Assembly (NCBI GenBank): GCA_964428315.1
Contig: CAYRXT010000008.1
Span: 6,140 to 70,139 of the forward strand
Source of the DNA: an uncultured Planctomycetales bacterium
GTDB lineage: Bacteria > Omnitrophota > Gorgyraeia > Zapsychrales > CAYRXT01
Direction of reading: 5' to 3'
Length of the DNA stretch: 64,000 nt
In this document: piece after piece, positions 3,992-57,284 of the stretch
Numbering within the stretch: the stretch's first letter is position 1
Layout of the letters: every line of letters starts with the position of its first letter
Translations under genes and position numbers: made by a program
Notes under the pieces: model-generated
What the model saw: only the letters and a program-made list of their open reading frames with translations
The model's database searches: none
What the model was told of the DNA's origin: nothing

Positions 3992-5062
3992 TTATTTCTG
4001 TAAGGGAGTCGAAGAAGATTTTTGCTGGATGGTATTGATCGCCGCGGAGGTCATCTCGGTCAAAAGAAGGATGGAATCGAGTCCGGCTCGGCCGGAGGGC
4101 CCCGCGTCTTTTCTGGACGAGAGGTTCAGGACGCCGTAAAGTTTGTCCGCCGATTTCAGGGGGGTAACGAGGGAAAATTTGATATCGGGCCGTTTGAGGT
4201 GTTCTTGAATGCGGTTGTGCGCGCTTTGCGTCCCTTCGATAAACAGGGGCGTTCTCTCTTCGGCCACGACCCCGGCCACGCCTTCGCCGACGCGCGTCCG
4301 CGCACGGTTGATGATGTCTTTCTTGAGGCCGCGGGACACCTTGATTGTCAGTTCACCGGTTTCTTCATCCAGGACCATGATGGATCCGCATTCGGTCCGG
4401 GTCATCTTCATGGCCATATCCAGAAATGTGGCCAGGAGCTCGTCTAGGAAGATCGAAGAAAGGATGTCCTGCGCGTCCCTGCTTATCTCTTCGCCCAGTC
4501 CTTCGCTGTTTAAAGCGAGTTTTGAGAGATCATATTTCTGTGATTTCAACTGTACCGTGTAGCGGGAGACCTCGTCCAGCAGATCGAGGATGGACTTGAT
4601 GCCCACGAAGGAGATGGTCCTGATCTCGCCCAAGGCGTCCAGAAGATCGGACGGTTCCATCCCGAACTCCAGGGCGATTTTTTCGTAATGTTCCGCACCC
4701 AGTCGGCGGTTCAGTATCACGGGACCGATAATAAGATAGGCTACGGCTGTCCTCCTGGGGCCGTAAATGGGGACGGCAAAAAGGTGCAGATCGAAGGGGT
4801 ATTGATATTCGAGATAAAAGCCGTGCTGTTTAAACTTATCCATCATCCTGGAGTCGTCCTTGAGCAGGTCCATGCCCGCGGGCGACATCTCGAGAAATTT
4901 CCAGCCATAACGGCCCATGCAGGGCGTCAGGAAGGCCTTGCCCTGATGGTCGACCATGAAGATATTCACACGAAGGACGTCGATGAAGCGCTGGAGGATT
5001 TCGACCCAGCGGTCTTTATCGATCAATTCCTGAGTGAGTTGTCTGATGTCCTTGTCGTTCAT
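3992..5062 (-). CDS. PocR-like sensory domain plus GAF domain protein (no output domain)
   Basis: N-terminal PocR-like region. The C-terminal part reads like a GAF domain (GSIMVLDEETGELTIKVSRGL...VGEGVAGVVAEERTPLFIE). Lies directly downstream of the response regulator. Confidence 0.55.
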   Translation of the reverse strand: MNDKDIRQLTQELIDKDRWVEILQRFIDVLRVNIFMVDHQGKAFLTPCMGRYGWKFLEMSPAGMDLLKDDSRMMDKFKQHGFYLEYQYPFDLHLFAVPIYGPRRTAVAYLIIGPVILNRRLGAEHYEKIALEFGMEPSDLLDALGEIRTISFVGIKSILDLLDEVSRYTVQLKSQKYDLSKLALNSEGLGEEISRDAQDILSSIFLDELLATFLDMAMKMTRTECGSIMVLDEETGELTIKVSRGLKKDIINRARTRVGEGVAGVVAEERTPLFIEGTQSAHNRIQEHLKRPDIKFSLVTPLKSADKLYGVLNLSSRKDAGPSGRAGLDSILLLTEMTSAAINTIQQKSSSTPLQK

Positions 5063-5063
5063 G

Positions 5064-6440
5064 TCATTTCGCAGGCCGTTTGAAGGGGATATCCAGTTTT
5101 TTCATTTTATTGTACAGGGTTGTACGGTTGACGCCGAGCGCGGCGGCGGCTTTGTTGCGGTTCCAGTTGCTTTCCCTGAGGACCGAAAGGATCAACTCGC
5201 GTTCGGGTTCCTCCAGAATTTTCTTTAACGGTTTTCCGTCGCTGGGTTTGATGGCGTCCGCCGAAAATTTTTCGGCGTTGGGGATGTCCCGCAGGTTGAG
5301 GACGTCCGTCTTGGCCATGATCACGGCGCCTTCTATCGCGTTTTCCAGCTCACGGATGTTTCCCGGCCAGTTGTATTCGAGGAAAGTCTTCCTGACCTCT
5401 TCCGAAATCCCCGTGATCTTCTTGTCGGATTTTTCGTTGTATTTACGCATGAACTCATCGACCAGCAATTCGATGTCTTCCTTGCGCTCCCTGAGCGGAG
5501 GGACCTGGATGGCGATGACGTTGATCCGGTAGTAGAGATCTTCACGGAACTCGCCTTTTTCGACCTGTTCCCGGAGATCGCGGTTAGTTGCGACGATGAT
5601 CCGCGCGTCGGTCTTCCGCGGCATGTTATCGCCCACGCGTTCGAATATCCCGTCCTGAAGAACCCGGAGCAGTTTGACCTGAAGATTGGGAGAAAACGCG
5701 TCGATTTCATCGAGGAAGATCGTGCCGTCCTTGGCATATTCGAAGCGCCCCTCCTTGTCCTTGATGGCGCCGGTGAAGGAGCCTTTCATGTGTCCGAACA
5801 GCTCGCTTTCAAGCAGTGTCTCGGAAAGTGCTCCGCAGCTGACCTCCACAAAGGGTTTGTCGAGGCGTTGTTTGTCGTTCCGCTGAATGGCCCTCGCCAC
5901 GAGGCTCTTCCCTGTTCCGCTGTCACCGGTGATCAGGATGGTCGCGTGGGTGCTGGCAACAGAGTCGATGATATGATAGATCTTCTGCATCTTTTCGCTC
6001 GCGCCGGTCATGCCGTCGTATGTTGACCGTGACGTCCTGGCCAGTTTGCGTTTGAGGCTGATGTTTTCGTCCACGATGGACTTCTTGTCAATGATCCGCT
6101 TGATGAGCAATTTGATCTCGTTGTCGATAATCGGTTTGGTGATATAGTCATAGGCGCCTTTTTTCATGGCCTCGACCGCTGTTTCGATGCTTCCGTAACC
6201 GGTGATGATGATGACCTCGGTTTCCGGGTGGTCTTTCTTGACCGCTTCCAGCAGATCGAGGCCGCTCATGGACGGAAGTTTCATGTCGGTGATGACGGCG
6301 TCCACCGGTGTATGGCTGAGGAGTTCAAGTGCGTCCTCGGCGTTTTCCGTCATATGGGCGTTGTATCCCTCAATGCGCAGGATCTCATAAAGGGATTTGC
6401 GTATAAGCGGTTCGTCGTCGACAATCAAAATATTAAACAT
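5064..6440 (-). CDS. sigma-54-dependent Fis-family response regulator (NtrC-like; PrsR-like candidate)
   Basis: Receiver domain (DDEPLIR, D...K), AAA+ sigma-54 activator motifs (GDSGTGKSLVARAIQ, GAFTGA, ESELFGH) and a C-terminal HTH. Overlaps the histidine kinase gene by 8 nt. Confidence 0.9.
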   Translation of the reverse strand: MFNILIVDDEPLIRKSLYEILRIEGYNAHMTENAEDALELLSHTPVDAVITDMKLPSMSGLDLLEAVKKDHPETEVIIITGYGSIETAVEAMKKGAYDYITKPIIDNEIKLLIKRIIDKKSIVDENISLKRKLARTSRSTYDGMTGASEKMQKIYHIIDSVASTHATILITGDSGTGKSLVARAIQRNDKQRLDKPFVEVSCGALSETLLESELFGHMKGSFTGAIKDKEGRFEYAKDGTIFLDEIDAFSPNLQVKLLRVLQDGIFERVGDNMPRKTDARIIVATNRDLREQVEKGEFREDLYYRINVIAIQVPPLRERKEDIELLVDEFMRKYNEKSDKKITGISEEVRKTFLEYNWPGNIRELENAIEGAVIMAKTDVLNLRDIPNAEKFSADAIKPSDGKPLKKILEEPERELILSVLRESNWNRNKAAAALGVNRTTLYNKMKKLDIPFKRPAK

Positions 6441-7767
6441 CTCCCGCCTCCGTCTCTTCTGGCCCCACCGGGATAGACACCGTGAATATGGCGCCTTTGC
6501 CGGGCGCGCTTTCCACGTCGATCTCCCCGCCGTAGGATTTTACGATCTCTTGGACGATCGTCAGCCCGAGCCCGCATCCCTTGTCGATATCCTTTGTCGT
6601 AAAAAAGGGGTCAAAGATCCTTTCGATCAGGTCGCTTTGAATGCCGGATCCGTTGTCCGCGACCGAGAAAAGGATTTTTCCGTCTTTAAAAGCCGTCATA
6701 ATCGCTATCTCCCCGCCGTCCCGGACCGAGTCGATGGCATTGCGCAGAAGGTTCAAAACGACGCGATCGACTCCGAAGTCCATCAAAAGAGGGACGTTAT
6801 CCGCCAGCGATTTGGTCAGCCGGATGTTCTTCTGGTACAATGCGGTCCCAAGCCCGCCGGTCGCTTCATTGACGGCGTCATTAAAATGTATCTTCTTCAT
6901 CGTCGGGGGCTCATTGCGAGAGCATGCCAGCAGACTCCGCACAATGTTGACCATGCGGTTGAGACCCGCCTTGGCCTCAATGAGATAATCCTTTACGGGA
7001 TCGTCCTCTTCGAGCTGGGTCAACGAGAGGTTGATGAAGCGCAGTACGCCGTCAAGGGGATTATTCAGTTCGTGGGCGATGCCGCCGGCCAGTTTGCCCA
7101 GCGAAGCCAGCTTCTCCTGGGTTATGACCTGGTGGCGCAGTTTGCTTGTCATTTCACTGGATTTCCCCAGTTCGTCCTTGAGCGACTGGGATTCTTTGAC
7201 GAGACGTTTGAATTTGTTGTAAAGCCGTGTGCGCCGGTAATTCAGGGCGATTTGGCTTGAGAGAAAGTCGAGGATCTGCAGTTCATTGCTGGTGAAGCGG
7301 GAGCCTGTCGTTTTGTCGGCGATGTTGATCACACCGATCAGCTTATCCTTGAAGAGTAGAGGCGCGCAGAGGAAAGACGGCGTCGAATAACCTTTACGGG
7401 GCTGGTGCTCGGGGAATCGTGTGTCGCGCGTGATATCATCCACGAAGAGAGGCTTCTTGATCTCGGCCACTTTGCCGACAACGCCTTCACCCAGCTTTTT
7501 GACCAGCTTTTCCTGTTCGCCGACTCCCATCCCGCGGCCGATTTTGAGGATCAGCTCTTGGCCGTTTTCGCTCAAAAGAAAGATAGACCCCCGTCTGGCC
7601 TGGAAGAGGTCCAGGGTCTTGTCCAGCGAGACCTCCAGGAGTTCCTGTGCCGTGAGGGTAACATTAACGGCGGCGCAGATGTCACCGATCTTTTGAAAGA
7701 CGTCCGACTGGATGAAATTTTCGGTTATGTTATCGGCCGGATTCATGGTTAGGGTATCGCAAATCAC
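6433..7767 (-). CDS. cytoplasmic GAF-domain sensor histidine kinase
   Basis: GAF domain, H-box HELNNPL, HATPase_c G-boxes (DNGSGI, GLGLTIV). Confidence 0.85.
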   Translation of the reverse strand: MICDTLTMNPADNITENFIQSDVFQKIGDICAAVNVTLTAQELLEVSLDKTLDLFQARRGSIFLLSENGQELILKIGRGMGVGEQEKLVKKLGEGVVGKVAEIKKPLFVDDITRDTRFPEHQPRKGYSTPSFLCAPLLFKDKLIGVINIADKTTGSRFTSNELQILDFLSSQIALNYRRTRLYNKFKRLVKESQSLKDELGKSSEMTSKLRHQVITQEKLASLGKLAGGIAHELNNPLDGVLRFINLSLTQLEEDDPVKDYLIEAKAGLNRMVNIVRSLLACSRNEPPTMKKIHFNDAVNEATGGLGTALYQKNIRLTKSLADNVPLLMDFGVDRVVLNLLRNAIDSVRDGGEIAIMTAFKDGKILFSVADNGSGIQSDLIERIFDPFFTTKDIDKGCGLGLTIVQEIVKSYGGEIDVESAPGKGAIFTVSIPVGPEETEAGDV

Positions 7768-8707: not shown

Positions 8708-9607
8708 TCAGGAAGCGGTTCGGGAAAAAGTCTCTTGCTGTTCTTCCTTTTTCATAAGGTAAAATGTCGTAAGGGCGACCAGCACTGCCGCATCAATAAA
8801 GAGCGTGACGATGATGCTCGCGACAATGATAAGCGCCTGCCCCTCCGGAAATACGGAATTCATCTGGGGCGAAAGCGAATTGCGCATGATCAGAACAGGG
8901 ACATAAAGGATCATGGGGAAAAACACGATGCAGGTGACTGTTGTCAGTGACTTCCAAAGATATCCAAAATTCACTGCAAGCGCGGTATGGATCTTTTTCC
9001 GGTCGATAACAATCGCCGGTATGACAAAGGCAAAAACCGTTGTCACTATAATCGCGATAAGAAGCTGAAAATACGGGGCGCCGTGGATGATGACTGTCTT
9101 CAAGACGAAAAGGACGCCGGAGCTAGACCGGATCTGTTCCGCCCGCAAATAGATCTGAGCGAACAAATCCGAAAGCGTTTTAACCGCCAGGAGTGATAAA
9201 AAGGCGGCGATAATAATATGAACGTATTGCGACAGCGTGTCGCGAATAGCTGTTTTGATGACGATATGTTTCCCGTCATTGATGGCCTTGATTATCCGGA
9301 CGGCGACGGCCGTAAAAAAGGCCCCGAAAAAGACAAAGATAACCAGCTGGCTGTAAAAAAACAGTTTCGGCAACAGTATAAAATTATAGGGGTAATGCAG
9401 GAACGTCTCATGCCAGATCCGCCGGACAACTGGTCCGAAAAAAATCACCAGCGGATAGCGCGGCAAAAAATAGAGCATCTCGAGAGCCAGCAGTTGCAGG
9501 AGCGCAATCAATATAAACGGATAAAAGATGACAGGATGTCCTGCCAGGATGCCCAGTGATACCTTCAACACCGCAACCGGGTGCCGGTAAATGGCGTTTT
9601 TTTGCAT
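8708..9607 (-). CDS. polytopic integral membrane protein, unknown function
   Basis: About 8-10 predicted TM helices. First gene after the terminator at 9700-9738. It precedes the TPR, kinase and regulator genes. Confidence 0.5.
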   Translation of the reverse strand: MQKNAIYRHPVAVLKVSLGILAGHPVIFYPFILIALLQLLALEMLYFLPRYPLVIFFGPVVRRIWHETFLHYPYNFILLPKLFFYSQLVIFVFFGAFFTAVAVRIIKAINDGKHIVIKTAIRDTLSQYVHIIIAAFLSLLAVKTLSDLFAQIYLRAEQIRSSSGVLFVLKTVIIHGAPYFQLLIAIIVTTVFAFVIPAIVIDRKKIHTALAVNFGYLWKSLTTVTCIVFFPMILYVPVLIMRNSLSPQMNSVFPEGQALIIVASIIVTLFIDAAVLVALTTFYLMKKEEQQETFSRTAS

Positions 9608-9699
9608 TTGTTTATATTTAACGATTAAGGATAAAAGGAAAATTTATGCTAACAAATTCGTAACTGCATGTCAAATTTAAACTTTTATAAAGATTTGAC

Positions 9700-9738
9700 A
9701 AAAAAATAAGACAAGTTTGAGAACCTGTCTTATTTTTC
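9700..9738. terminator. bidirectional rho-independent terminator (A7 - ATAAGACA/TGTCTTAT stem - T5)
   Basis: Perfect 8-bp stem flanked by an A-run and a T-run. Downstream of the mini PEP-CTERM gene on the minus strand. Confidence 0.55.
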
Positions 9739-9799
9739 GTTGAGAAAATGAATCTCTCCATCCGTGGCAGCAAACCTTTGTTTGTCAGCAAATCCCCGG

Positions 9800-10081
9800 T
9801 TATCTTTTCTTGTTCTTCATCCGCGCATAAGCCATGACCATCATTCCGCTTCCCATTAGCATGAGGGTTGCCGGTTCCGGATTATGCAGTGTAGCCAACG
9901 AGGAACCTGCGCCTCCGGTTATCGCGGCCGCTCCGCCAGCCGACGAACCGCCTGAGGACGCGGCGAGGAATATTCCGCCGCTTCCAATCAGGCTTCCGAG
10001 TCCGCCGCCCTGACAACCGTACAGTGCGGGAAGAAGAACCGACAAGCCAATGACTTGTAATGATTGAATTAGCTTTTTCAT
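9800..10081 (-). CDS. minimal Gly/Ser-rich PEP-CTERM protein (exosortase substrate)
   Basis: Signal peptide and low-complexity G/S/A region. C-terminal PEPATLMLMGSGMMVMAYARMKNKKR gives PEP, TM helix and basic tail. Confidence 0.75.
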   Translation of the reverse strand: MKKLIQSLQVIGLSVLLPALYGCQGGGLGSLIGSGGIFLAASSGGSSAGGAAAITGGAGSSLATLHNPEPATLMLMGSGMMVMAYARMKNKKR

Positions 10082-10152
10082 AAGTTCTCTCCCTATGGTT
10101 ATTATAGCGATCTATACTCTCTAATCTCATCAGTTTGACGATCACGTCATCG

Positions 10153-10169
10153 TGCTGAACGCTTGCCAC
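10153..10169 (-). promoter_or_regulatory. candidate sigma-54 promoter (TGGCAA-N5-CAGCA; GG and GC correctly spaced)
   Basis: Minus-strand sequence GTGGCAAGCGTTCAGCA lies about 75 nt upstream of the PEP-CTERM ATG. The -12 element deviates from TTGC. Confidence 0.3.
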
Positions 10170-10263
10170 CTGGCCCCTTTATTGCCGGCAAGATACCTCA
10201 ACCTTGCTTCTGACGGTACCGCACTGACGGTTTATGTGCTTACACAGCGGCCTTTGGCTCCGG

Positions 10264-10812
10264 TTATTTCTTCCTGCGAAGACCGGCCAGGCCGAGAAGC
10301 CCAATGCCAAGTAATGACATCGTGGCAGGCTCCGGGACTGTATCATAGCCGCTGGCCGCAAGCGTGGATTTCTTAAAAATCCAGTCGCCTTTTTTTGTGT
10401 CAATTTTCACGTTCAGCAGGCCGTCGGTCTGCAACATGGCTGTATCGATATCGAATTCCAAGTCGCTGTAATCGACCTCATTGAGCCCCCGGTATTCTCC
10501 GTCCGTCCAGACTTTGATCTTTTCATCAACCCAGTCCCATCCGAATATCCAGGGGAAATCGCCTTTGTCATCGCTCACATCCAGCGTTAAGGTCGCGGAT
10601 GTCAACACATGATCAGTCGGATTAAAACCATGGATATTGATGTCGTGCGTATAAGACAGCTTATCATTCACTTCCAGGAAAAGAAAGTCTAGAGAATAAA
10701 CGTCTTTCGGATCATAAACATCGGTGAAATCCACCGGTATGACTGCCATCGCGGTTGAACTAAAAACCAGCACAAAACCAATCATCAGGCCTAAAATGGA
10801 AATCTTTATCAT
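10264..10812 (-). CDS. PEP-CTERM domain protein (secreted exosortase substrate)
   Basis: Start refined to MIKISILGL with RBS AAAGGAGA 6 nt upstream. Signal peptide. C-terminal VPEPATMSLLGIGLLGLAGLRRKK. Confidence 0.8.
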   Translation of the reverse strand: MIKISILGLMIGFVLVFSSTAMAVIPVDFTDVYDPKDVYSLDFLFLEVNDKLSYTHDINIHGFNPTDHVLTSATLTLDVSDDKGDFPWIFGWDWVDEKIKVWTDGEYRGLNEVDYSDLEFDIDTAMLQTDGLLNVKIDTKKGDWIFKKSTLAASGYDTVPEPATMSLLGIGLLGLAGLRRKK

Positions 10813-10877
10813 CTGTTTTCTCCTTTCTAATAAGTTGTTGACATTGTCTGTTTCCATTATCGCAGTAATTTATTGGA

Positions 10878-10908
10878 GGCCATTCGGCTTGCCCTATTCC
10901 GAATGGTC
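10878..10908 (-). promoter_or_regulatory. intergenic hairpin (GGCCATTCGG ... CCGAATGGTC, 9/10-bp stem)
   Basis: Inverted repeat between the sugar transferase stop and the PEP-CTERM gene. Not followed by a U-run on either strand. Confidence 0.3.
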
Positions 10909-10989
10909 ATAATATTGAATAAATCAGCACAGATTAGAACTTCTTTGAAATTTTATTTTTATGAGAAACAGCAAAAAATGCGTTCCGAC

Positions 10990-11874
10990 TTATCTCGCGC
11001 CTTCTCCAGTGAATACCACCCGTACTGTGCGCATAACTATAAGTAAATCAGTCCAGAAATTCAGCTTATTGATATAGAACCGGTCATAGCGCACTTTTTT
11101 CTTGACGTCTTCGATTGTTTCGTCATAACGATGCCGTACCTGCGCCAAACCCGTTATGCCCGGTTTGACCATAAGACGCGTTTCATATAGAGGAATGGAC
11201 TCCCTCAGCTTGGGAATGAATTCCGGCCGTTCGGGGCGGGGCCCGATAATGCTCATTTCCCCTTTTAAGACGTTCAGGAACTGCGGGATCTCATCAATAT
11301 GGGCTTTGCGAAGGAAATTCCCGATGGGGATAAGTCGGCTGTCGTTTGCCAGAGCCCATACCGGTCCGGTTTCTTTTTCCGCGTCCGTTTTCATAGTACG
11401 GAATTTAATGATTTCAAAAAGCTTGCCGTCCTTCCCGACCCGTGTCTGTGAAAAAAAGACGGGGCCTCTTGACGTCATCTTGATGGCCAGGGCGACGAGC
11501 AGGCACAGCGGCGAAAGGATGACTAAAGCCGTCAACGATCCGATGATATCGAACAACCGTTTTGCCCTATCATAGGTCCGCTGAATAAAACGGAAAACCA
11601 TTCCCATCAGTCCGCTGGCAAACAAGACCAAAGATGATGGTTCCGGCGCCCGGGATTCATTCGAGGCGTTCGAACCCCGGGATGACATTTCCACAGGATA
11701 CGCCGCGTCCATAGGTTTTACTAACGATATGGTCGCCCACGCAGTGCCCACACAAAGGCCGCCGATAATCAAGAGGCTCATGAGCACCGTTAATCGGCCG
11801 AATTTCTTTAGATATTGTGCATTTCTTTTCATAATGAAAGCGTTTGCGGAAAGCGTTTTGTTTAGTCTCAACAA
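10990..11874 (-). CDS. polyprenyl-phosphate sugar phosphotransferase (small PglC/WbaP C-terminal-domain type) with in-frame signal-peptide plus PEP-CTERM-like N-terminal extension
   Basis: Catalytic region KRLFDIIGSLTALVILSPL...GPVFFSQTRVGKDGKLFEIIKFRTM. The N-terminal 95 codons read MKRNAQYLKKFGRLTVLMSLLIIGGLCVGTAWA...RAPEPSSLVLFASGLMGMVFRFIQRTYDRAKR. The first codon of the ORF is TTG. In-frame ATGs lie at 11832, 11781 and about 11601. Confidence 0.8.
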   Translation of the reverse strand: MLRLNKTLSANAFIMKRNAQYLKKFGRLTVLMSLLIIGGLCVGTAWATISLVKPMDAAYPVEMSSRGSNASNESRAPEPSSLVLFASGLMGMVFRFIQRTYDRAKRLFDIIGSLTALVILSPLCLLVALAIKMTSRGPVFFSQTRVGKDGKLFEIIKFRTMKTDAEKETGPVWALANDSRLIPIGNFLRKAHIDEIPQFLNVLKGEMSIIGPRPERPEFIPKLRESIPLYETRLMVKPGITGLAQVRHRYDETIEDVKKKVRYDRFYINKLNFWTDLLIVMRTVRVVFTGEGAR

Positions 11875-11885
11875 TCATTATAGTA

Positions 11886-11900
11886 GCAATAAACGTGCCA
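11886..11900 (-). promoter_or_regulatory. sigma-54 promoter, full consensus CTGGCACG-N4-TTGCT
   Basis: Minus-strand sequence AATCCTGGCACGTTTATTGCTACTA. The predicted TSS is about 11875, immediately upstream of the sugar-transferase/PEP-CTERM ORF. Confidence 0.65.
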
Positions 11901-12040
11901 GGATTAAGGCGAATTGGCGAAGAACAGGTTAAGACCATAACCATTTGAAGTTAAAAGATTAATATATATTTAGGTGAACACTTATAGTATGACAAGATAA
12001 GACATTTCTAGACAAATACGGACATACCCGGAAATCATTT

Positions 12041-12058
12041 TGTTGAAATATTTCAACA
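12041..12058. promoter_or_regulatory. perfect 18-bp palindrome TGTTGAAATATTTCAACA (candidate enhancer-binding-protein UAS or operator)
   Basis: Lies about 150 bp upstream of the sigma-54 -24 element, the typical UAS distance. Confidence 0.4.
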
Positions 12059-12311
12059 TGTTGACCGGCATCATCAAGATGTACAATGAATCATCACTGT
12101 CCCAGCCAAGGTGTTATTCGCGCCGAATAGGCTCCCGTGGTGCCGCAAGCGGGAATCCATGAAGGGCAAAAATGGATCCCCGCTTAAAGCATGCCGGGAT
12201 GACAGATTCTTACAGGCATGCGGGGATGGCATGATCCTTTGTTTAGCCCACATTCCATCCGCGACAATTCGATCCTTATTTGGACATGAGTGTATAAATC
12301 AAAATCTGAAC

Positions 12312-12947
12312 TTAAGGCAGAAATTCATAAAGGAAGGGAACAATTTTTTGAATAAACGACCGGATAGTCTGCAACGTTTCTTCTTCATTATTGCCCATCT
12401 CCGAGGAGACACGGATCAGGGCACTGCTTGTTGACCGGCCGGTCAAGGCGTTGAGCGCCAGCAGTCCCTGCTGTTTCCAGTAATTCGAAGTGAATCTGTC
12501 CCGACCCGCCTTGAACCAGTAAAAGGAAAACTGCTTCTCTTCACCGAGCGTCAATTCAAGATTGTTGGCCGTGATAGACTTGTCCGAACCAGCCAGGTCG
12601 ATGCTTTCTTTGGTGTTTTTGAGAATGGTCGCCCCCCCGCCCGTGTAGCAGATTTCCGGAGGATGCGACACCTTCCGGTTTTCCCCGGAATAAACAATAA
12701 AGAGAAACACCTTTTTGCCGTTATGCCGGTTGGTATATTCCCGGATAAAAACATTGCGTGTTTCCAGGATTTCGTATTCGCGTTCGGAGATAGGCAGGTC
12801 CCTCGCCTCCCAGGGGCCGATTTCTTTTGGAAAATCATGGAGTATGACAGCCTCACGGTCGTTATAGGTCCGGAAATACCTCGACCATCCGAACAGGCCG
12901 CATGCCAGGATGAGCGAGATCAACACAAAATAACGAAAACCCTTCAT
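12312..12947 (-). CDS. exosortase-associated EpsI family protein
   Basis: Start refined to MKGFRYFVLISLILACGLFGW. VSHPPEICY motif resembles the EpsI HSPExC signature. Directly downstream of the exosortase with a 5-nt gap. Confidence 0.7.
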   Translation of the reverse strand: MKGFRYFVLISLILACGLFGWSRYFRTYNDREAVILHDFPKEIGPWEARDLPISEREYEILETRNVFIREYTNRHNGKKVFLFIVYSGENRKVSHPPEICYTGGGATILKNTKESIDLAGSDKSITANNLELTLGEEKQFSFYWFKAGRDRFTSNYWKQQGLLALNALTGRSTSSALIRVSSEMGNNEEETLQTIRSFIQKIVPFLYEFLP

Positions 12948-12952
12948 GGCGT

Positions 12953-13819
12953 TCACTCCATTATTTTCATCAGCGAATACAAAAGCACGAAAGCCAGCGC
13001 GAAGACGAGAAAACCGGACAGGTCGTGGATAAAGCCTTCGGCCCTCTCCGGTCCCCATATCTCGCTTACCGACGCCAGGAATACGACGCGGAAGACATTG
13101 GTGGCGATCGCGATCGGCACGGTTGAGATAAAAAGCGTGAGCCTTTTCAAGAGCCGTGACTTCATCCAATAGGCGAAAATCGCCCCTAGGGCCGCAAGGG
13201 ATATCAGGGAACGCAGTCCGCTGCAGACATCGTCGACAACGACAAAAGCGTGCCTCATTCTGATGATGCTTCCCTCACGAATGGCGGGGATGCGGATGCT
13301 GTTCAGCGCCTCTGTGGAGATCTGCGCCGCCAGGAGTTTCATTTGGAAACTGATGTTGGTTATCACGACCATCGGTACGGGGATCATGAACATGAGAAAC
13401 AAGACAGGAAATAGGATGAGACGGAAGACCGCCGTGCCGTAAAACAGAAGGACCATCCCGACGATCACCATCAGCATGGACCACGCCGCGGTGAAATAGA
13501 TCCGGAATACGGCGCTGGCCGCGTAGACCAGGAGCCCGGATAAAACAAATCCCCATGCCCAGCGCGAGGGCACAAAGCGCGCTTTGGCCAGCTCGTCCTT
13601 TTTTTGCCATATCAAAAAGGCCGTAACAAAGGGGATGAGGATGCCGTGGCTGTAATAGGAGTCGCGCGCGAACCAGCGCTCCCACATCCACTCGAGGACC
13701 GGGGCGTACGCCGCCAGAAATACAAGGCCGGCGGCCACAGGCCCGGCATGGGCTTTGGCTATATCCTTGACATTCATTATAGTATCAGCAAATTTAACAT
13801 AATTCGTGTTAGGCATCAA
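12953..13819 (-). CDS. exosortase (XrtA/EpsH-like)
   Basis: Eight-TM protein with YSHGILIP, DDVCSGLRSL (catalytic Cys) and ATNVFRV (Arg) signature motifs. Confidence 0.85.
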   Translation of the reverse strand: MMPNTNYVKFADTIMNVKDIAKAHAGPVAAGLVFLAAYAPVLEWMWERWFARDSYYSHGILIPFVTAFLIWQKKDELAKARFVPSRWAWGFVLSGLLVYAASAVFRIYFTAAWSMLMVIVGMVLLFYGTAVFRLILFPVLFLMFMIPVPMVVITNISFQMKLLAAQISTEALNSIRIPAIREGSIIRMRHAFVVVDDVCSGLRSLISLAALGAIFAYWMKSRLLKRLTLFISTVPIAIATNVFRVVFLASVSEIWGPERAEGFIHDLSGFLVFALAFVLLYSLMKIME

Positions 13820-13837: not shown

Positions 13838-16528
13838 TTAGTTTTGCCTTTTCATGATGGCGAACTCATCGATCCAGAAATGGGCCCCCTTTTCAGCGTT
13901 CCCGTCGGTGTGAAACTGGATCGCCGAAAGGTAGTCCGTCATAGCGAGAACGCTGCGCACGCCTCCGGCGGCGTCGAAGACGAGTTCATGCCATTGACCG
14001 TCGTCGCTGAGCTGCAGTTTGTCCTTGGCCAGGGCGCCGGCACACCGATACCCCCTCGTCCCTCCCAGACAGATCCAGTCGCCAAACCCCGTCCGAGCCC
14101 TTAAGCCCACCGGCGTGTTTTGCGGGATGCGGTAGGCGAATTTCACGAAGGGGTAGTCCCGCAGATGCCATGCGTTGATATTCACGCCGGCGGTTAGGTC
14201 CGATCCCGCGAATTTACCGGTGACCTTGAGCGCCCGGCCGTTTCTTCCGGATTCGACGATATCAAAACGGGCGTCTCCCTGGGAAGTGAACATCCCCTGC
14301 GATTTTTCGAAGCCGGCATAAAACAAAATGTCCTTACCCGCTGCCCGTTTTTCTTCGGGCAGTTCGGACAGGACGTTTCCCTTCCAGAGAGGAGAATCGT
14401 CAACGTAACCCAGGAAGTGGCCACTGGAGCGGTAATTCTGATTGAAATGTTTTTGGGAATTCAGGAAGGCTTCGGACACGCCGCGCTCGAAGACCTTCAT
14501 CCCGATCACATAGTAATCCTCGCGCTCATAACCGCTGATCAGATGACCGTAACCGAAGGCGTGGACGACCAGGAGATTCAGATCCGGCGAGCCTTCGGAG
14601 TTGGCATAATTGTCGGACGTCATATAGCGGAACGAATCGCCCCTGGCGACCAGGCCTTCCCTTATCATCCAGTCAAGGGCGCGGAACAGGGAATCCGCCG
14701 CGATCCTGTTATGCGTTAACCGGTGAAGTTTAACAACTGGCTCGAGGAGAATACCCGTCATGAAAGGCGACCCCCCGTATTCATCAGGTCTCGCGCCTTC
14801 GTCGGGATCATGGGCGTAAAGGTTGTGGATAAACCCTCCCCGGTCCGGCCACTGGATCTGCGTGAGATAAAGATGCTCCATGTATTGTTCAGCGGCTTTG
14901 AGATACGCCGTGTCCTGCGATATTTCATAATAGGACAGAACACCGAGAAACGGAAAGGCATAACGCCGTTCGGTCCAAAAATTCGTGCGGCCTTTTTCAT
15001 AAAAAGCGTCTTCAGGAGGAAAATGTGTTTTTAAATAATCCGCCATGTATCCGGCAACCTCCAGCGATCGCGGGTCTCCCGTCAGAAGATAGTCGTCGGC
15101 CAGGGCCTGCACATAGACGTATCGGGGTTCCCTGCCGGCCGTGCTCCGTCCCCTCTCAGAGCCGTCGAGAACGATTTGATTCTCACGGTAAAAAATGAGT
15201 TCCTTCCTGGCAGCCAGAAAATAATCCAGGTTCCCCGAGCGCGCGTAAAACTGGTAGTAGACGTGCGGTGTGGAATAGTAGCCATCTTTACGGACGTCAC
15301 CGGTCCTTTCTTTTTCGGAAAGACGGGGGAAATACCGTTCGATGTGCTGATCGTAAACAGCGGCCGGGCCACGGACTTTCCGGCGGATGGCCTTTTGCCG
15401 CTCAAGCTCCCTCATTTCCGACGCGGAGAGATCGCTTTGACCGGCCTTATCTTCCGGCGCGGGCGTATAACTCATGGGGCGCTGGGCGCCTGTAACCTCG
15501 GAACCGCAAAGCCATTCAGCCGGCAGGACGATAAAACCTTCGGGCAGGTCCCAACGCGGTTCCTGCACCGGAAGGGATTCCAAACCGCGTCTTTCCCCCC
15601 ATTCCATTGTCACATATTCATAAAAACGCGGAACGTCATAGGAAAACTGGACGAGAAGGGAGCGGATAGAATTGTCCCGGGGCCATCGGGCCAGAACGCG
15701 CACGGCAACGGGGATCTCTTTTCCTGCGGCATCGAGGAAACGGACCATCCGGTCTGATGTGAGCTGTCCGGGACCGAAAGGGATCCCGGTTGAAACCAAG
15801 ACAGAATCGCCCTTAGTTTTTTTCAATTTGGCGACGGGTACCTTGATACGTCCCTCTTTGGGCAGCTGATTTTGAGGCGGCATTTTGGCCAGGCGTATGC
15901 TGAGAGTTTGTTTATCCGTATCCGTTTTTGCGGCCGGCGCGATTGTATGCGGAGTAGAAATTGGTCCGGCGTCTTCTTTATACACCTCCCTCTCCTGTCG
16001 CACGAGCCGCAGGTTGTCGAAAAACAGGGTGAAGCTTTTGTCCGGTTTCTTGAGGAAGAAGACCACAAACCGGATATGAGAGGCATTAATTTTCCGTGCG
16101 ATCTCTGACCGGTCAACACTGAGGCTGTTCATGCCCGGCTTTAAAATTCGGGAAGTCTGCGCCCGTTTACGGTTGTTATCGTCAAGCCTGATGTAGAGTT
16201 CCAGGTCTTCCTGCCTGGGATTGTAGACATCCAAAGCAAGAGATGCATATTCCCCCCAGTTTTGAGGAAGTTTTTTGGTGTTAATGCTGGGCCAGTCGTC
16301 CTTGGGGAATTCGGCCTTCAAGGCATAACGCCCCTGCGTCACATGGTCCTTGGACAATTCCAGAGCAAAGCCTTGTTCCGGTGATGTGTCCCAGACCTTG
16401 ACATCTTCAAAATCCGAGAGAAGACGCGCTGTTCCTGCGCCTTCTTTTCCGTCGTCACCGGTCAGGCTCATCAACAGAGCACCGGCGCAGATAATGACCA
16501 GTATCGGTATCCATTTTTTTAAACCCAT
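13838..16528 (-). CDS. large secreted protein, unknown function (possible alpha/alpha-toroid polysaccharide lyase or hydrolase with beta-sandwich modules)
   Basis: Start refined to MGLKKWIPILVIICAGALLMS with RBS GAGGTG and a signal peptide. No PEP-CTERM. Immediately upstream of the exosortase in the same operon. Confidence 0.55.
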   Translation of the reverse strand: MGLKKWIPILVIICAGALLMSLTGDDGKEGAGTARLLSDFEDVKVWDTSPEQGFALELSKDHVTQGRYALKAEFPKDDWPSINTKKLPQNWGEYASLALDVYNPRQEDLELYIRLDDNNRKRAQTSRILKPGMNSLSVDRSEIARKINASHIRFVVFFLKKPDKSFTLFFDNLRLVRQEREVYKEDAGPISTPHTIAPAAKTDTDKQTLSIRLAKMPPQNQLPKEGRIKVPVAKLKKTKGDSVLVSTGIPFGPGQLTSDRMVRFLDAAGKEIPVAVRVLARWPRDNSIRSLLVQFSYDVPRFYEYVTMEWGERRGLESLPVQEPRWDLPEGFIVLPAEWLCGSEVTGAQRPMSYTPAPEDKAGQSDLSASEMRELERQKAIRRKVRGPAAVYDQHIERYFPRLSEKERTGDVRKDGYYSTPHVYYQFYARSGNLDYFLAARKELIFYRENQIVLDGSERGRSTAGREPRYVYVQALADDYLLTGDPRSLEVAGYMADYLKTHFPPEDAFYEKGRTNFWTERRYAFPFLGVLSYYEISQDTAYLKAAEQYMEHLYLTQIQWPDRGGFIHNLYAHDPDEGARPDEYGGSPFMTGILLEPVVKLHRLTHNRIAADSLFRALDWMIREGLVARGDSFRYMTSDNYANSEGSPDLNLLVVHAFGYGHLISGYEREDYYVIGMKVFERGVSEAFLNSQKHFNQNYRSSGHFLGYVDDSPLWKGNVLSELPEEKRAAGKDILFYAGFEKSQGMFTSQGDARFDIVESGRNGRALKVTGKFAGSDLTAGVNINAWHLRDYPFVKFAYRIPQNTPVGLRARTGFGDWICLGGTRGYRCAGALAKDKLQLSDDGQWHELVFDAAGGVRSVLAMTDYLSAIQFHTDGNAEKGAHFWIDEFAIMKRQN

Positions 16529-16532
16529 AAAA

Positions 16533-17642
16533 TCACCTCGATTCAATACGACTATGTATTTTATAATCCCTGAATCCGCCGGGATCACCGTTTTGGCCGG
16601 CCTCGGCGGCCTTGATGATGTTCACCATTTCCCTGGCGGTGACATAGTGAAGACGGAATCGGATTCCGTCGTCGTATCCCGCGCAAAGATATCTGTGCAT
16701 TTCCTCAATGGGGCCTTTGAGAAGCACCCCCCGGTTTTCCTCTGTCGCGCCGTGGGTATGGACCTTGATGAATATCCAATCGTCACGGCCGGCGACCCGG
16801 ATCATACAGCGCGCCCAAAGGTCAACGCGGTTTGCGTCCGGTGGGTTGAAAGCCGATATCTCTCCGTTTTCGATCCGGGGAAAGAGACCGAATTTCCTTT
16901 TATTCCAGTTCAGTGCCAGCGGCCCCTGAACCAACAGTAGCGCCGAGTCCACAGCGCTCATTCCTTCGGCGCATTCCACACCGTCGTTATGGGATTTGGG
17001 CGCGTTCTCATTGTTGTGGACGTCGTAGTACAGGCTGTTGATGGTCCTGGTCTGTGTCTCGCTGGGCGCCGAAGGCATGGTGAAATCTGCGTAACACCCT
17101 TCATCCTTGAGGATCGAGGTTTCGTTGTTGACGCCGCACCACCGGCCGTCCCTGCGTGAATTGTTGAGACTCCAGTTGCCATGTATGAAGCCGAAACGGA
17201 TCTCCCCGGTTGTCTTGTCCGCCCCCAAAAGTCCGTGACGGGAGAAATTTTTCTTGGCCAGACGGATCTTCTGACGGAAAGAGCGGGCGTTGTCGCCGTC
17301 GTGGTGCAGATGGATTTCCACCTCTCCATAACCCCTTCGGCACAGGTCGGCCAGACGTTCCAGATGTCCGGCGTTATACGTTTCTGCCGGGTAGAAAAAG
17401 GTGTGCCGGGGATGCCGGCCGTCGCCGTCAAAAAACCTGTCGGCCATGGACGGGTACCGCTCTGTCCAGGCTTTGACGCGCTCGAGCTGCTGCTCCGGAC
17501 CGGCCCTGTTCCAGTCCGGTTCAAAGTGGTCCGCGAGACAGAACATGACATGCGCGGGCCGGGCTGGATGTTCCCGTCTTCTCAGACGCGCGAGCTGCTG
17601 CCGGATATATGCCGGAAGCCAGATGTGGGTGTTTTTGAACAT
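16533..17642 (-). CDS. hypothetical protein, possibly a divergent polysaccharide deacetylase or carbohydrate esterase-like enzyme
   Basis: His-rich motifs (EIHLHHDGD, KVHTHG) and an FCLADHFEP segment. Family assignment is weak. Confidence 0.4.
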   Translation of the reverse strand: MFKNTHIWLPAYIRQQLARLRRREHPARPAHVMFCLADHFEPDWNRAGPEQQLERVKAWTERYPSMADRFFDGDGRHPRHTFFYPAETYNAGHLERLADLCRRGYGEVEIHLHHDGDNARSFRQKIRLAKKNFSRHGLLGADKTTGEIRFGFIHGNWSLNNSRRDGRWCGVNNETSILKDEGCYADFTMPSAPSETQTRTINSLYYDVHNNENAPKSHNDGVECAEGMSAVDSALLLVQGPLALNWNKRKFGLFPRIENGEISAFNPPDANRVDLWARCMIRVAGRDDWIFIKVHTHGATEENRGVLLKGPIEEMHRYLCAGYDDGIRFRLHYVTAREMVNIIKAAEAGQNGDPGGFRDYKIHSRIESR

Positions 17643-23385: not shown

Positions 23386-24501
23386 TCATTTCTTTATGCT
23401 ATGGTAAACCCGCAGGTACTTCTCGGCCATTTGGTCCAGATGAAACATGCGCCGGGCTCTTTGTCTGGCGGCGTGCCCGAGCCCGGAAGCATAATCCGGG
23501 TTCCTCATTACGTTGATCATGCTCTCAGCCAGGGCCTCGTGATCGCCGGCAGGGGTCAGCAGTCCGGTTTCCCCATCGACTATAACCTCGGGATTGCCTC
23601 CGACCTTGGTCGCGATAACTGGCCTGGCGGCCGCCATGGCCTCGAGCAGGGTGATGGAGACGCCTTCCTGTTTGGTCGACAGGACAACGCAGTCCATGGC
23701 GCTCAGCAGAAAGGGGATCTCCCGGCGGTAACCCATGAAATCGATCCGGTCTCTCACGCCGCTGTCCCGCGCCATTGATTCCAGGTCATTCAGGAGTGGG
23801 CCGCTGCCGACAATGGCCAGGCGGGCGCAGGGACATTCCCCCGCGACATTCCGGAAGGCCCGTATCAGGGTTTCATGGTCCTTTTCCGGTGAGAGCCGGG
23901 CGATCATGCCGAATACGTACTCATCGTCCTTCCAATTAAACAGCCGGCGGTAGGATTGACGCGCGTCCGTTTGCGGGCTGTTTGCGAACCTTCCCGTGTC
24001 TATGGCGTTGTAAATGACCTCCACTTTGGATTCCCTTATGCGATTGTTCTTCAACAGTTGTCTTTTGGCGTCTTCGGAAACAGTGATGACTTTCTGCGTC
24101 ATTCCCCAGACAAGTGACGGGGCAATTAGGCCGGCACGGCCGTGTCGGGTGTTGACCGTGGCACAGCCCGCCAGTCTTCCGGCGGGAGTTCCGTAAAGCA
24201 GCGGCGCCAGATTGTGGGTATGCACAACATCGAAGCGGTTTTTGCGGATGAACCCTGCCAGCCGCCAGACGACCCTGAAATCGAAACCGTCCTTTTTCGG
24301 AAAATTGGCGACCCAGACCCCCTGTTCCTCGGCCTCCTTTTGAAGTGCCCCTTCATGTGAAAGGGTGGCCAGAACCGTCTGCACACCCTTGCCCTGGAGG
24401 GATCTGGCCAGAAGGATGGTCATCTTCTCCAGACCGCCGGGTTCCAAACTGAGGACGATATGCAGGACTTTCATGTTAAGCGTCCGCCTTGTTCTGCTCA
24501 T
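23386..24501 (-). CDS. family 4 glycosyltransferase
   Basis: GT4 motifs. Alternative start MKVLHIVLSL at 24474. Confidence 0.8.
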   Translation of the reverse strand: MSRTRRTLNMKVLHIVLSLEPGGLEKMTILLARSLQGKGVQTVLATLSHEGALQKEAEEQGVWVANFPKKDGFDFRVVWRLAGFIRKNRFDVVHTHNLAPLLYGTPAGRLAGCATVNTRHGRAGLIAPSLVWGMTQKVITVSEDAKRQLLKNNRIRESKVEVIYNAIDTGRFANSPQTDARQSYRRLFNWKDDEYVFGMIARLSPEKDHETLIRAFRNVAGECPCARLAIVGSGPLLNDLESMARDSGVRDRIDFMGYRREIPFLLSAMDCVVLSTKQEGVSITLLEAMAAARPVIATKVGGNPEVIVDGETGLLTPAGDHEALAESMINVMRNPDYASGLGHAARQRARRMFHLDQMAEKYLRVYHSIKK

Positions 24502-55330: not shown

Positions 55331-55546
55331 TTAGTCAAACAGAGCCTCATGAAAGGCCTTGATTCTCGATACGTCATCTTCGTTATAGACCCTCCATCCA
55401 CGCCAATCGCGTTTGGGTCTTTTGACTTTTCCCATGCTTTCCCAGCGGGCAATTGTTTTTGTACTTACCCCGATAATCCTGGCAACATCGGTGATAGTAA
55501 GCCTTTTGCGCACCTGTACCCCCCCTTCAATTTGCTCTTTAATCAT
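55331..55546 (-). CDS. MerR/excisionase-type HTH DNA-binding protein; first gene of the supercluster
   Basis: LTITDVARIIGVSTKTIARWESMG helix-turn-helix. Start refined to MIKEQ with RBS AAAGGCGG. Confidence 0.65.
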   Translation of the reverse strand: MIKEQIEGGVQVRKRLTITDVARIIGVSTKTIARWESMGKVKRPKRDWRGWRVYNEDDVSRIKAFHEALFD

Positions 55547-55601
55547 ACGATAACCGCCTTTCAAAAAATGTAGGTTACAATTTCGTATACCAGAATATAG
55601 A

Positions 55602-55616
55602 GCAATTATCATACCA
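55602..55616 (-). promoter_or_regulatory. candidate sigma-54-type promoter (TGGTAT-N5-TTGC) upstream of the HTH gene
   Basis: Minus-strand TGGTATGATAATTGC with correct GG-N10-GC spacing, about 45 nt upstream of the refined start. The -24 element deviates from TGGCAC. Confidence 0.25.
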
Positions 55617-55922
55617 TTTAAGAAAACGATTTCTCATATCTAAATAATTATTATAACTTATTGTTGGTATAAAGGTTACATAATTGCACAGAGCTAATTT
55701 ATTGCTGAGTTGAATAGTCATGTATTTCTGTATGTTTAACATAATTAACAATAATGTCTATGACATGGTAGGACAATCCCAGAAATTATGCGTTAAGTTG
55801 CATTTATGTCATGTCTAACAATTTGAACCATAAGTAAGTCCTTTTTAAACAAATAGTTAGAAGGAATTTTGATAATCATTTGAAATTTGTAATATTTGGA
55901 TCCGCATGGTATACTTTTTGCT

Positions 55923-57284
55923 ATGGACCAGCGTCTATCAAAATTGCAGGTTCAAAAACAGATATTATCTCCTGTTATGCAGAGGTCGATTACCATCCTG
56001 ACCCTGCCGATCACGGAACTCAACCAGGCCATTGAAACAGAGCTTCAGGATAATCCTTTTCTCGAGTCCGAAGAAGACATGAACCAGATGGTTGAATTGC
56101 CGCCAGAGGGCGCCCCAACGTCTTTGGAATTGATGTATCAGATGGCCGAGGATGAGCTTCCTGATAAGTCTACGGGTAAGAAGGAAGAGGTCTTTTTCCG
56201 GGTTGCCCAGGCCATATCCTTAAGCGATTATCTTCTTCAGCAGCTTCGTATTGAGCTAAGCGATCCGGAAGATATCAGGATCGGTGAGGTCATTATAGGG
56301 AATATCAACGATAACGGTTATCTTACGGTTTCTCTTGATGACATCGCGGGGCAATGCGGATTAACCGAAACCGGCAGAATCCTGCGCATTCTTTCACGCA
56401 TTCAAACATTTGATCCGCCCGGGGTGGGGGCGAGAGATATCAAGGAGTGCCTTGCTATTCAGCTGGACAACCTGGAGTGGGACGACAAGCCTTTGGCCTT
56501 ACAGATCATTCAAGATCACTGGGATGATCTGGCGAAGAAGAGATTTGACCTGATTGCCCGACGTTTGAGCATTTCCACGGAACGGACGAAACACATATTT
56601 AACTTTATCTCAGGGCTCGAGCCGAAACCGGCGCGCAATTTTTTCCCGATCAACACGCAAATCTATGTCAAACCGGATCTGTTTGTCGTCAGGCAAGGTG
56701 ACGGCCTTGAAGTCAAAATAAATTCCGAGGGGGTCCCCCTTTTGAAGATCAGCCCGCTATACAGGGCAATGCTCAGAAAGGAGAATTTAACCGACGAGGA
56801 AAGAGCTTTCTTGAAAAACAAAATGGAAAGCGCCGTGCAGTTTATACGCAGCATCAGACAAAGAGAAACCACTTTGCGCAATATCGCCGAGGATATTCTC
56901 CGTCATCAACAGCGATTTTTTGAGATGGGCCCTGTCGGGCTGTGCCCCCTGACTTTAAAGGACGTCGCCGGACGCATCGACCGCGATGAGTCAACGGTCT
57001 CGCGCACTATCCGCAACAAATATATGGACACGCCGATGGGGATCTTTCCCATGAAGTTCTTTTTTTCCAATGCCGTGGCCATGGAAAATAACGGCAAGAC
57101 AACTTCACGGGGCATCAAGGAAGAACTTAAAGAGCTTATTAACGGCGAAGATAAAACGAAACCTCTTTCTGACCAGGCCATTGTTGAATATTTCAGGAAA
57201 AAAGGGATGATATTGGCCAGGAGGACTGTCGCCAAATATCGTCAGAACTGCCGTATTTCTCCCTCCCATCTCCGTAAGGAATAA
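55923..57284 (+). CDS. rpoN: RNA polymerase sigma-54 factor
   Basis: N-terminal LQQxL-type region I (MDQRLSKLQVQKQILSPVMQRSITIL), C-terminal HTH and RpoN box ARRTVAKYR. Confidence 0.9.
   Translation: MDQRLSKLQVQKQILSPVMQRSITILTLPITELNQAIETELQDNPFLESEEDMNQMVELPPEGAPTSLELMYQMAEDELPDKSTGKKEEVFFRVAQAISLSDYLLQQLRIELSDPEDIRIGEVIIGNINDNGYLTVSLDDIAGQCGLTETGRILRILSRIQTFDPPGVGARDIKECLAIQLDNLEWDDKPLALQIIQDHWDDLAKKRFDLIARRLSISTERTKHIFNFISGLEPKPARNFFPINTQIYVKPDLFVVRQGDGLEVKINSEGVPLLKISPLYRAMLRKENLTDEERAFLKNKMESAVQFIRSIRQRETTLRNIAEDILRHQQRFFEMGPVGLCPLTLKDVAGRIDRDESTVSRTIRNKYMDTPMGIFPMKFFFSNAVAMENNGKTTSRGIKEELKELINGEDKTKPLSDQAIVEYFRKKGMILARRTVAKYRQNCRISPSHLRKE

Follow-up and report, generated by a model that had tools for sequence, protein, structure and literature searches.

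We examined the control region of a PEP-CTERM operon in a stretch of 64,000 nucleotides (nt) of contig CAYRXT010000008.1 from an uncultured Omnitrophota bacterium; this whole 64-kb stretch is referred to as the window. The operon lies on the minus strand, begins with the gene for a priming sugar transferase, and is preceded on the same strand by genes for an exosortase and EpsI. A sequence-only reading of the region between EpsI and the transferase had proposed a sigma-54 (-24/-12) promoter with a palindrome upstream of it and, from these, control of the transferase and the PEP-CTERM substrates by a bacterial enhancer-binding protein (EBP). The genes and elements directly concerned are the following (ORF, open reading frame; aa, amino acids).

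12953..13819, minus: exosortase (TIGR02602, 171.8 against a cut-off of 105.55), upstream of the promoter
12312-13169, minus: ORF of EpsI, with the domain from about 12836 (TIGR02914, 94 against 42.8)
12059..12076: distal dyad, abutting the proximal one; minus-strand TGATGATGCCGGTCAACA, one mismatch
12041..12058: proximal enhancer dyad; TGTTGAAATATTTCAACA, a perfect TGTTGA-N6-TCAACA of 18 bp
11902..11990, minus: AT-rich spacer from enhancer to promoter, 69% A+T against 47% in the whole window
11885..11901, minus: sigma-54 -24/-12 promoter, C-TGGCACG-TTTA-TTGCT (CTGGCACGTTTATTGCT), GG at 11899/11898 and GC at 11888/11887
11873..11877, minus: predicted transcription start, about 11-12 nt 3' of the -12 GC by the standard -24/-12 geometry
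10990..11832, minus: gene 1, a 280-aa polyprenyl glycosylphosphotransferase that has a signal peptide and, internally, a PEP-CTERM-like signal

Promoter and Enhancer Dyad

The promoter sequence reads as had been claimed. It contains an exact match to TGGCAC-N5-TTGCW (11900..11885), in which the GG and GC dinucleotides are exactly 10 nt apart, and this is the single match in the window when up to one mismatch is allowed. The longer form TGGCACG-N4-TTGCW, taken exactly, also occurs once, against an expectation of 0.02, and 2 of 100 shuffles held a match (shuffles preserved dinucleotides, and figures are per window). The element is on the gene strand, 52 nt from the ATG at 11832, which alignment with 35 homologues identifies as the transferase start (MKRNAQYL..., a signal peptide). 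The statement that the element ends about 12 nt before the first codon is correct for the mechanical ORF start, a TTG at 11874, and not for this real start; likewise the intergenic region, put at 437 bp, measures 479 nt once the start is placed at ATG 11832. Standard -24/-12 geometry would put the transcription start near 11875, with a predicted leader of about 42 nt. No sigma-70-like site was found on the gene strand of the intergenic region (11833-12311).

The perfect 18-bp palindrome reported about 150 bp upstream is present at 12041-12058, with its centre 149 nt upstream of the -24 element. It is unique: there is no second copy of TGTTGAAATATTTCAACA in the window even with three mismatches, and zero shuffles matched. 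The distal dyad that abuts it had been overlooked; tandem dyads also occur in two related loci (L099 and L101).

Conservation Across Related Loci

A metagenome scan seeded with the N-terminal APEP region of the transferase yielded 38 orthologous loci (L081-L118). Aligning the full transferase against the genome collection gave, among the matches listed, distant sugar transferases of 42-54% identity from many phyla, except for one Brocadiia homologue described below (L001). The closest named homologues belong to Candidatus Omnitrophota.

In 34 loci the upstream sequence extends for 290 nt or more, and every one of them has TGGCA(C/T)-N5-TTGCT, or a one-base variant of it, on the gene strand. 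The motif precedes the conserved APEP codon by 200-292 nt across loci (236 in the window), and 32 promoters give the consensus T-TGGCA(C/T)G-N4-TTGCT, in which GG, CA and TTGC vary little or not at all. At other positions in about 390 kb of related loci the motif is almost absent. Five extra matches were found, of which those in L095 and L103 and a weaker one in L110 precede PEP-CTERM genes, one in L105 precedes a gene for a protein without a PEP ending, and one in L089 is intragenic. The TGTTGA-N6-TCAACA dyad, with at most 2 of 12 positions mismatched, was found in 25 of the 28 loci that are long enough, against a background of 0.04 per 350 nt. The best dyad sites, taken from 26 loci, have their centres at -151 +/- 13 relative to the -24 element, which falls within the usual range of upstream activator sites, roughly 80-200 nt upstream.

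These counts bear on whether both motif and palindrome arose by chance in an intergenic region that is AT-rich, an explanation to which we give almost no credence. With one mismatch allowed, 1.58 promoter matches are expected per window, and to that extent chance would suffice; the exact-match expectation is far lower, however, and conservation of both elements at fixed positions effectively refutes it. Because they are conserved and fixed in position, and because the gene strand has no sigma-70-like site, we regard the promoter and the dyad, on sequence grounds, as real cis-elements. The element at 11901..11885 is most likely a genuine enhancer-dependent sigma-54 promoter.

Gene order is conserved as well. 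By tblastn, the order exosortase, EpsI, promoter, transferase, PEP-CTERM protein, protein with seven transmembrane segments (7-TM), tetratricopeptide repeat (TPR) protein, kinase and regulator is kept across the related loci, with the exosortase upstream of the transferase gene in 24 of them and PEP-CTERM ORFs 3' of that gene in 12 of 15.

The Operon Behind the Promoter

Downstream of the transferase, the operon continues with two further genes and ends at a terminator.

10264..10812, minus: gene 2, a PEP-CTERM protein (TIGR02595, 26.5 bits against a cut-off of 16); the ATG after AGGAG was chosen as start
9800..10081, minus: gene 3, a 93-aa Gly/Ser-rich lipoprotein ending in NPEPATLMLMGSGMMVMAYARMKNKKR, of PEP-CTERM type
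9699..9738, minus: strong intrinsic terminator 3' of the operon, with a 17-bp stem and a U tract, -17.5 kcal/mol

Most likely, then, the promoter drives three genes, those for the transferase and for two PEP-CTERM proteins, and each product bears a PEP sorting signal. Small ORFs containing HNPEPAT are likewise found 3' of the transferase gene in L081, L087 and L106. The exosortase, EpsI and PEP-CTERM protein families all score above their cut-offs in the window. None of the named exosortase subtype models (XrtA, XrtD, XrtW and others) reaches its cut-off for the protein at 12953-13819, and it is therefore assigned to an unclassified exosortase lineage. This exosortase ORF shares 217 nt, read in another frame, with the mechanical ORF of EpsI; the EpsI domain begins only at about 12836.

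The transferase scores 304.5 bits with TIGR03025 (cut-off 295.55) and matches Pfam Bac_transf. Its PEP-CTERM-like signal occupies residues 62-85 (11578-11649, minus; APEPSSLVLFASGLMGMVFRFIQRTY), directly before the catalytic domain, and scores 21.9 bits with Pfam PEP-CTERM against a gathering score of 20.7. The signal peptide is followed by about 30 aa of variable linker, then by APEP, a membrane helix and RR(T)Y, and last by the catalytic domain; APEP is invariant in 36 of 36 aligned sequences. From this arrangement, the priming transferase may itself be an exosortase substrate. Just outside our main finding, the internal PEP signal is the most unusual thing that we saw. The Brocadiia homologue has the PEP signal without a signal peptide, and a sigma-54 motif upstream.

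An alternative is that the operon is transcribed mainly by read-through from the exosortase and EpsI genes, or from an unrecognised housekeeping promoter, and that the sigma-54 site serves as a conditional boost or a roadblock. The exosortase and EpsI genes share the strand of the operon, no U tract follows the hairpin that lies past EpsI (12148-12184), so that read-through is possible, and a housekeeping promoter of Omnitrophota might go unrecognised. Nevertheless, we judge this explanation improbable: an intergenic region of about 480 nt is conserved with the full enhancer-promoter layout, there is no sigma-70-like match on the gene strand, and the promoter stays directly before the transferase gene despite upstream insertions in L095 and L103.

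A Two-Component Pair and Sigma-54 Encoded in the Window

The window encodes both sigma-54 and an AAA+ activator with a GSFTGA motif, a GAFTGA-type loop. The genes and the site concerned are as follows (HTH, helix-turn-helix).

55923..57284, plus: rpoN (sigma-54), complete, with Pfam Sigma54_AID, Sigma54_CBD and Sigma54_DBD
9674..9646, minus: sigma-70-like promoter, TTGACA-17-TAGCAT with TG, a consensus match only; before the membrane protein, TPR, kinase and regulator genes
8708-9607, minus: 7-TM protein of 299 aa with about seven membrane segments
6433..7767, minus: sensor histidine kinase of 444 aa, GAF-HisKA-HATPase (Pfam), cytoplasmic
5064..6440, minus: NtrC-family response regulator, REC, Sigma54_activat (AAA+) and HTH_8 (a Fis-type HTH), with GSFTGA at residue 220

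Both the NtrC-type regulator at 5064-6440 and the local rpoN had been named in the sequence-only reading, and the domains listed bear out these identifications. The regulator is the sole EBP in the window. The kinase, in which no membrane or hydrophobic segment was found, is likely its partner. All five loci long enough to include it (L081, L084, L089, L115 and L118) have a syntenic regulator orthologue (59-72% identity), and eight loci have a syntenic orthologue of the kinase (47-61% identity); wherever the contig extends to them, both lie on the same strand. NtrC-family proteins with a Fis-type HTH typically bind dyads as dimers. We therefore propose the regulator as the most likely candidate for the activator that acts through the dyad. 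Overall, the promoter in 34 of 34 loci, the dyad in 25 of 28 and this synteny strongly support the suggestion that an EBP controls the transferase and PEP-CTERM genes.

The genes 3' of the sigma-70-like site are, in order, those for the 7-TM protein, the TPR protein, the kinase, the regulator and a PocR plus GAF protein. Since the kinase and regulator genes apparently have their own sigma-70-like promoter, autoregulation through the sigma-54 promoter is not expected. The 7-TM protein, with no Pfam or NCBIfam match, is conserved in 15 related loci, where its gene invariably separates the PEP-CTERM genes from those for the TPR protein, the kinase and the regulator. The PocR plus GAF protein (3992-5062, minus) follows directly after the regulator and has no recognisable output domain; in L089 an orthologue occupies the equivalent place.

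A Second Promoter of the Same Design

A promoter region built from the same elements, overlooked previously, lies in the intergenic region that separates rpoN from a divergent polysaccharide export operon (DBD, DNA-binding domain).

55601..55776, minus: second promoter, with TGTC, TGTC and GACA at 55775-55755, the dyad TGTTAATTATGTTAAACA at 55750-55733 and TGGTATGATAATTGCT at 55616-55601
55331-55546, minus: MerR-DBD-only protein of 71 aa (Pfam), the first gene behind the second promoter
54485-55309, minus: Wza-like polysaccharide export protein (Pfam), followed by Wzz/GNVR and others

This layout is also found before the orthologous genes in L140, L144 and L145/146, and L142/143 have the sigma-54 motif only. 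The gene order of the MerR-like/Wza operon is kept in L140-L146, with the MerR-like gene as its conserved first gene. rpoN is the divergent neighbour of the MerR-like gene in the window, L142, L144 and L145.

A sigma-54-like sequence on the plus strand, TGGTATACTTTTTGCT (55907-55922), was considered as a promoter of rpoN and rejected, as it ends one base before the start codon at 55923. It is either a chance match (about 0.5 relaxed matches are expected per window) or a sigma-54 site in autoregulation.

L095 (3290) and L103 (3325) have an extra PEP-CTERM gene, inserted past EpsI and ahead of the transferase gene, that comes with a sigma-54 promoter, TGTC repeats and a degenerate dyad of its own. 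The module is thus reused for single PEP-CTERM genes.

Phased TGTC Repeats and the Assignment of Sites

Between the dyads and the AT-rich spacer of the first promoter is a further element that had escaped notice.

11991..12030, minus: TGTC(C/T/A) direct repeats, with TGTC at 12024, 12014, 12004 and 11994, preceded by GGGTA

The four repeats are spaced at an exact 10-nt period. Of 29 promoters, 9 have an array of at least three TGTC spaced 9-11 nt apart, located at -129..-90, whereas 508 kb of background contained none, and degenerate copies are apparent in several other loci. They are probably the site of a second factor that binds direct repeats. A candidate, by analogy with BldC, is the MerR-domain-only protein encoded behind the second promoter. 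BldC of Streptomyces is a MerR-like, DBD-only protein that binds direct repeats head to tail (PMC5859096). The 71-aa protein resembles it in being a MerR DBD without a dimerisation or effector domain, and repeats phased at 10 nt are found at both promoters; its similarity to BldC is, however, weak (PDB 6amk/6ama, E about 0.03).

The repeats also suggest a different assignment of sites, in which the sigma-54 promoter is real, the EBP binds the TGTC repeats or is a distant one, and the dyad binds a repressor or co-regulator. In its favour, the arrays are highly specific, as the counts above show, they are present at both window promoters, they persist in L141, where the sigma-54 motif is missing, the order of dyad and TGTC repeats is reversed between the two window promoters, and a distant EBP may be encoded in the genome outside the window. 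On the other hand, the dyad is the more widely conserved element, being kept in L105, L114, L117 and L101, all without TGTC arrays; activators of the NtrC family with a Fis-type HTH are typically dyad binders; and the local regulator has kept its place wherever the contig extends to it. We consider this assignment unlikely.

Several points nonetheless weigh against placing the regulator on the dyad in a single, general design. For part of the clade, the TGTC repeats are as well conserved a candidate site as the dyad. In L115 the dyad is at -50, and in L141 the region before the MerR-like gene has four TGTC repeats and no sigma-54 motif, so the design is not universal. The consensus of integration host factor (IHF) was looked for in the spacer (11902..11990) and is absent from it. 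Finally, the link between regulator and dyad rests on synteny and on the usual dyad preference of activators with a Fis-type HTH.

Proposed Mechanism

Putting these elements together, we propose a sigma-54 promoter activated by an NtrC-type protein on the dyad, which drives the three-gene operon and has a second target in the export operon. We hold this overall explanation to be probable. The locally encoded sigma-54 would direct the holoenzyme to the -24 GG and -12 GC as a closed complex. On binding of an intracellular ligand, the cytoplasmic GAF kinase (6433-7767) would phosphorylate the regulator (5064-6440), and the phosphorylated regulator would assemble on the abutting dyads (12041-12076), about 150-167 nt upstream. 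Its GSFTGA loop would contact sigma-54 by looping of the AT-rich spacer, promoter opening requiring the AAA+ activator, while a second factor would bind the TGTC repeats between the dyads and the spacer. The predicted transcript would run from about 11875 through a leader of about 42 nt, the transferase, the PEP-CTERM protein and the PEP-CTERM lipoprotein, and end at the terminator near 9700. The MerR-like/Wza export operon would be induced in parallel through the same enhancer design. Export of the polymer would therefore be induced jointly with the priming enzyme and the exosortase substrates.

A more elaborate version of this scheme is possible, if rather doubtful. The enhancer would be composite, with the NtrC-type activator on the dyads and the BldC-like MerR-DBD protein (55331-55546) head to tail on the TGTC repeats, where it would take an IHF-like bending or co-activating role. 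Its own gene lies behind a promoter of like design, which would form a feed-forward loop; and the transferase, as an exosortase substrate, would tie polymer initiation to protein sorting.

Comparison With Known Systems

Proteobacterial PEP-CTERM genes have been described with a predicted sigma-54 motif and a 17-nt box ending in TTTACA about 63 nt upstream (Haft et al. 2006; PMC1569441). This box, motif 1, lies 32-92 nt upstream of the sigma-54 motif and correlates with PrsK, PrsR and PrsT, and the motifs were found in Proteobacteria only (PMC1569441). The locus studied here is like these systems in having a -24/-12 promoter with an upstream activator site before PEP-CTERM protein genes, and an NtrC-type regulator, a histidine kinase and a TPR protein near an exosortase/exopolysaccharide (EPS) locus. 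It had been likened to PrsK/PrsR-regulated loci, and as an analogy the comparison is apt.

Could the locus be an orthologous PrsK/PrsR/PrsT system of the proteobacterial type? The second-best family of the regulator is indeed TIGR02915 (PrsR), and the TPR protein and the kinase adjoin the regulator. All three proteins, however, score below the family cut-offs: the regulator 400.6 bits with TIGR02915 (cut-off 502.6), the kinase 87.3 bits with TIGR02916 (PrsK, cut-off 300) and the TPR protein, with 299 aa against a model of 899 positions, 30.3 bits with TIGR02917 (PrsT, cut-off 312.2). PrsK is a transmembrane protein with multiple membrane segments, whereas the kinase here is a soluble GAF sensor. 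The TTTACA box is absent from the 32-92 nt upstream of the sigma-54 motif in the window and was found there in 2 of 31 loci. The enhancer is instead an 18-bp dyad, farther away at about 125 nt from the promoter, compared with about 63 nt for the 17-nt box of Proteobacteria (PMC1569441). In addition, the promoter heads an operon that starts with the priming transferase, where theirs serves a single PEP-CTERM gene, and the host phylum is Omnitrophota, not Proteobacteria. We therefore reject membership on the missed cut-offs, the kinase architecture and the absent box, and regard orthology with the proteobacterial system as very improbable. The control scheme resembles the Prs system without being a member of it, and is a new version of a scheme known from Proteobacteria.

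In Aquincola, pepA was shown to be RpoN1-dependent and the EPS genes are not RpoN1-dependent (PMC9850573), whereas the second promoter described here covers polysaccharide export genes. The regulator itself shares the REC-AAA+(GAFTGA)-HTH_8 order of NtrC and AtoC, as well as a dyad target at about -150. Its best NCBIfam match is AtoC, at 441 bits, below the AtoC cut-off of 714, and it has another sensor and other target genes. In Vibrio fischeri, the syp locus is reportedly another polysaccharide locus under sigma-54/EBP control, through SypG (Yip et al. 2005, cited in PMC9850573). The likeness consists of a response-regulator-type activator, several sigma-54 promoters in one polysaccharide locus and a conserved enhancer; the proteins and the enhancer sequence are unrelated, however, and syp is without an exosortase/PEP-CTERM component.

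These results would extend sigma-54 control of exosortase/PEP-CTERM loci beyond Proteobacteria, the phylum to which the 2006 report confined its motifs. Within the library searched, no paper names both PEP-CTERM and Omnitrophota. The promoter consensus, the 18-bp dyad, the phased repeats and a leader motif (below) make up a testable cis-regulatory module for uncultivated Omnitrophota, the motifs of which are usable for regulon mapping in metagenome-assembled genomes. We know of no described promoter or regulon for this phylum. The module predicts joint induction of priming enzyme, sorted proteins and export machinery via a cytoplasmic GAF sensor. Its value is that of a well-defined regulatory module and not of a new principle.

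Other Features of the Control Region and the Window

Two further features flank the promoter-enhancer layout.

11836..11858, minus: motif in the 5' untranslated region, two direct copies of AAACGCTTTC (on the plus strand GAAAGCGTTT at 11836-11845 and 11849-11858)
12133..12233, minus: GC-rich hairpins and repeats 3' of the EpsI stop codon (nested hairpins within 12125-12270), with a fold of -53.8 kcal/mol

The leader motif had also been overlooked. Its AAACGCTTTC copies are related to the palindrome-like GAAAnCGnTTTC, which, with at most two mismatches, occurs in 12 of 32 loci (L085, L099, L103 and L112 among them) at a fixed offset of mostly 22-26 nt past TTGCT, which corresponds to roughly +13 to +26 on the predicted transcript; the background is 0.066 per 90 nt. 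It could be a repressor operator or a small RNA hairpin. As to covariation, there is one compensated variant (L095, GCAA..TTGC), and several are uncompensated.

In the GC-rich region, the direct repeat GCATGCCGGGATG/GCATGCGGGGATG is present as reported, at 12189-12204 and 12216-12231. The inverted repeat AGCGGGAATCCAT/ATGGATCCCCGCT exists as well, at 12148-12160/12172-12184, about 5 nt from the position given for it. They are not part of the conserved regulatory module: the repeats at 12133-12233 have no further copy in the window and none among the related loci, and we rejected a role for them in the enhancer because they are lineage-specific and unrepeated in the window. No U tract follows them. 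They are possibly a 3' stem-loop of the upstream operon. An Rfam scan of 9500-12400 gave no match.

The stretches annotated from about 17.7 to 55.3 kb make up a polysaccharide locus, which encodes glycosyltransferases, sugar-nucleotide enzymes, Wzy, Wzz and Wza. Three minus-strand ORFs of the polysaccharide locus have no Pfam match (13838-16588, 916 aa; 16533-17642, 369 aa; 24476-25861, 461 aa); the 916-aa protein has a 49%-identical homologue in the same position in L081. On the far side of rpoN, 57394-62433 (minus) encodes a surface-type protein of 1679 aa with PKD, F5/8 type C, Big_9 and DUF4215 domains, and a weak sigma-54-like sequence, TGGTTCTTCGTTTGCT (63097-63112, minus), lies about 660 nt upstream of its start.

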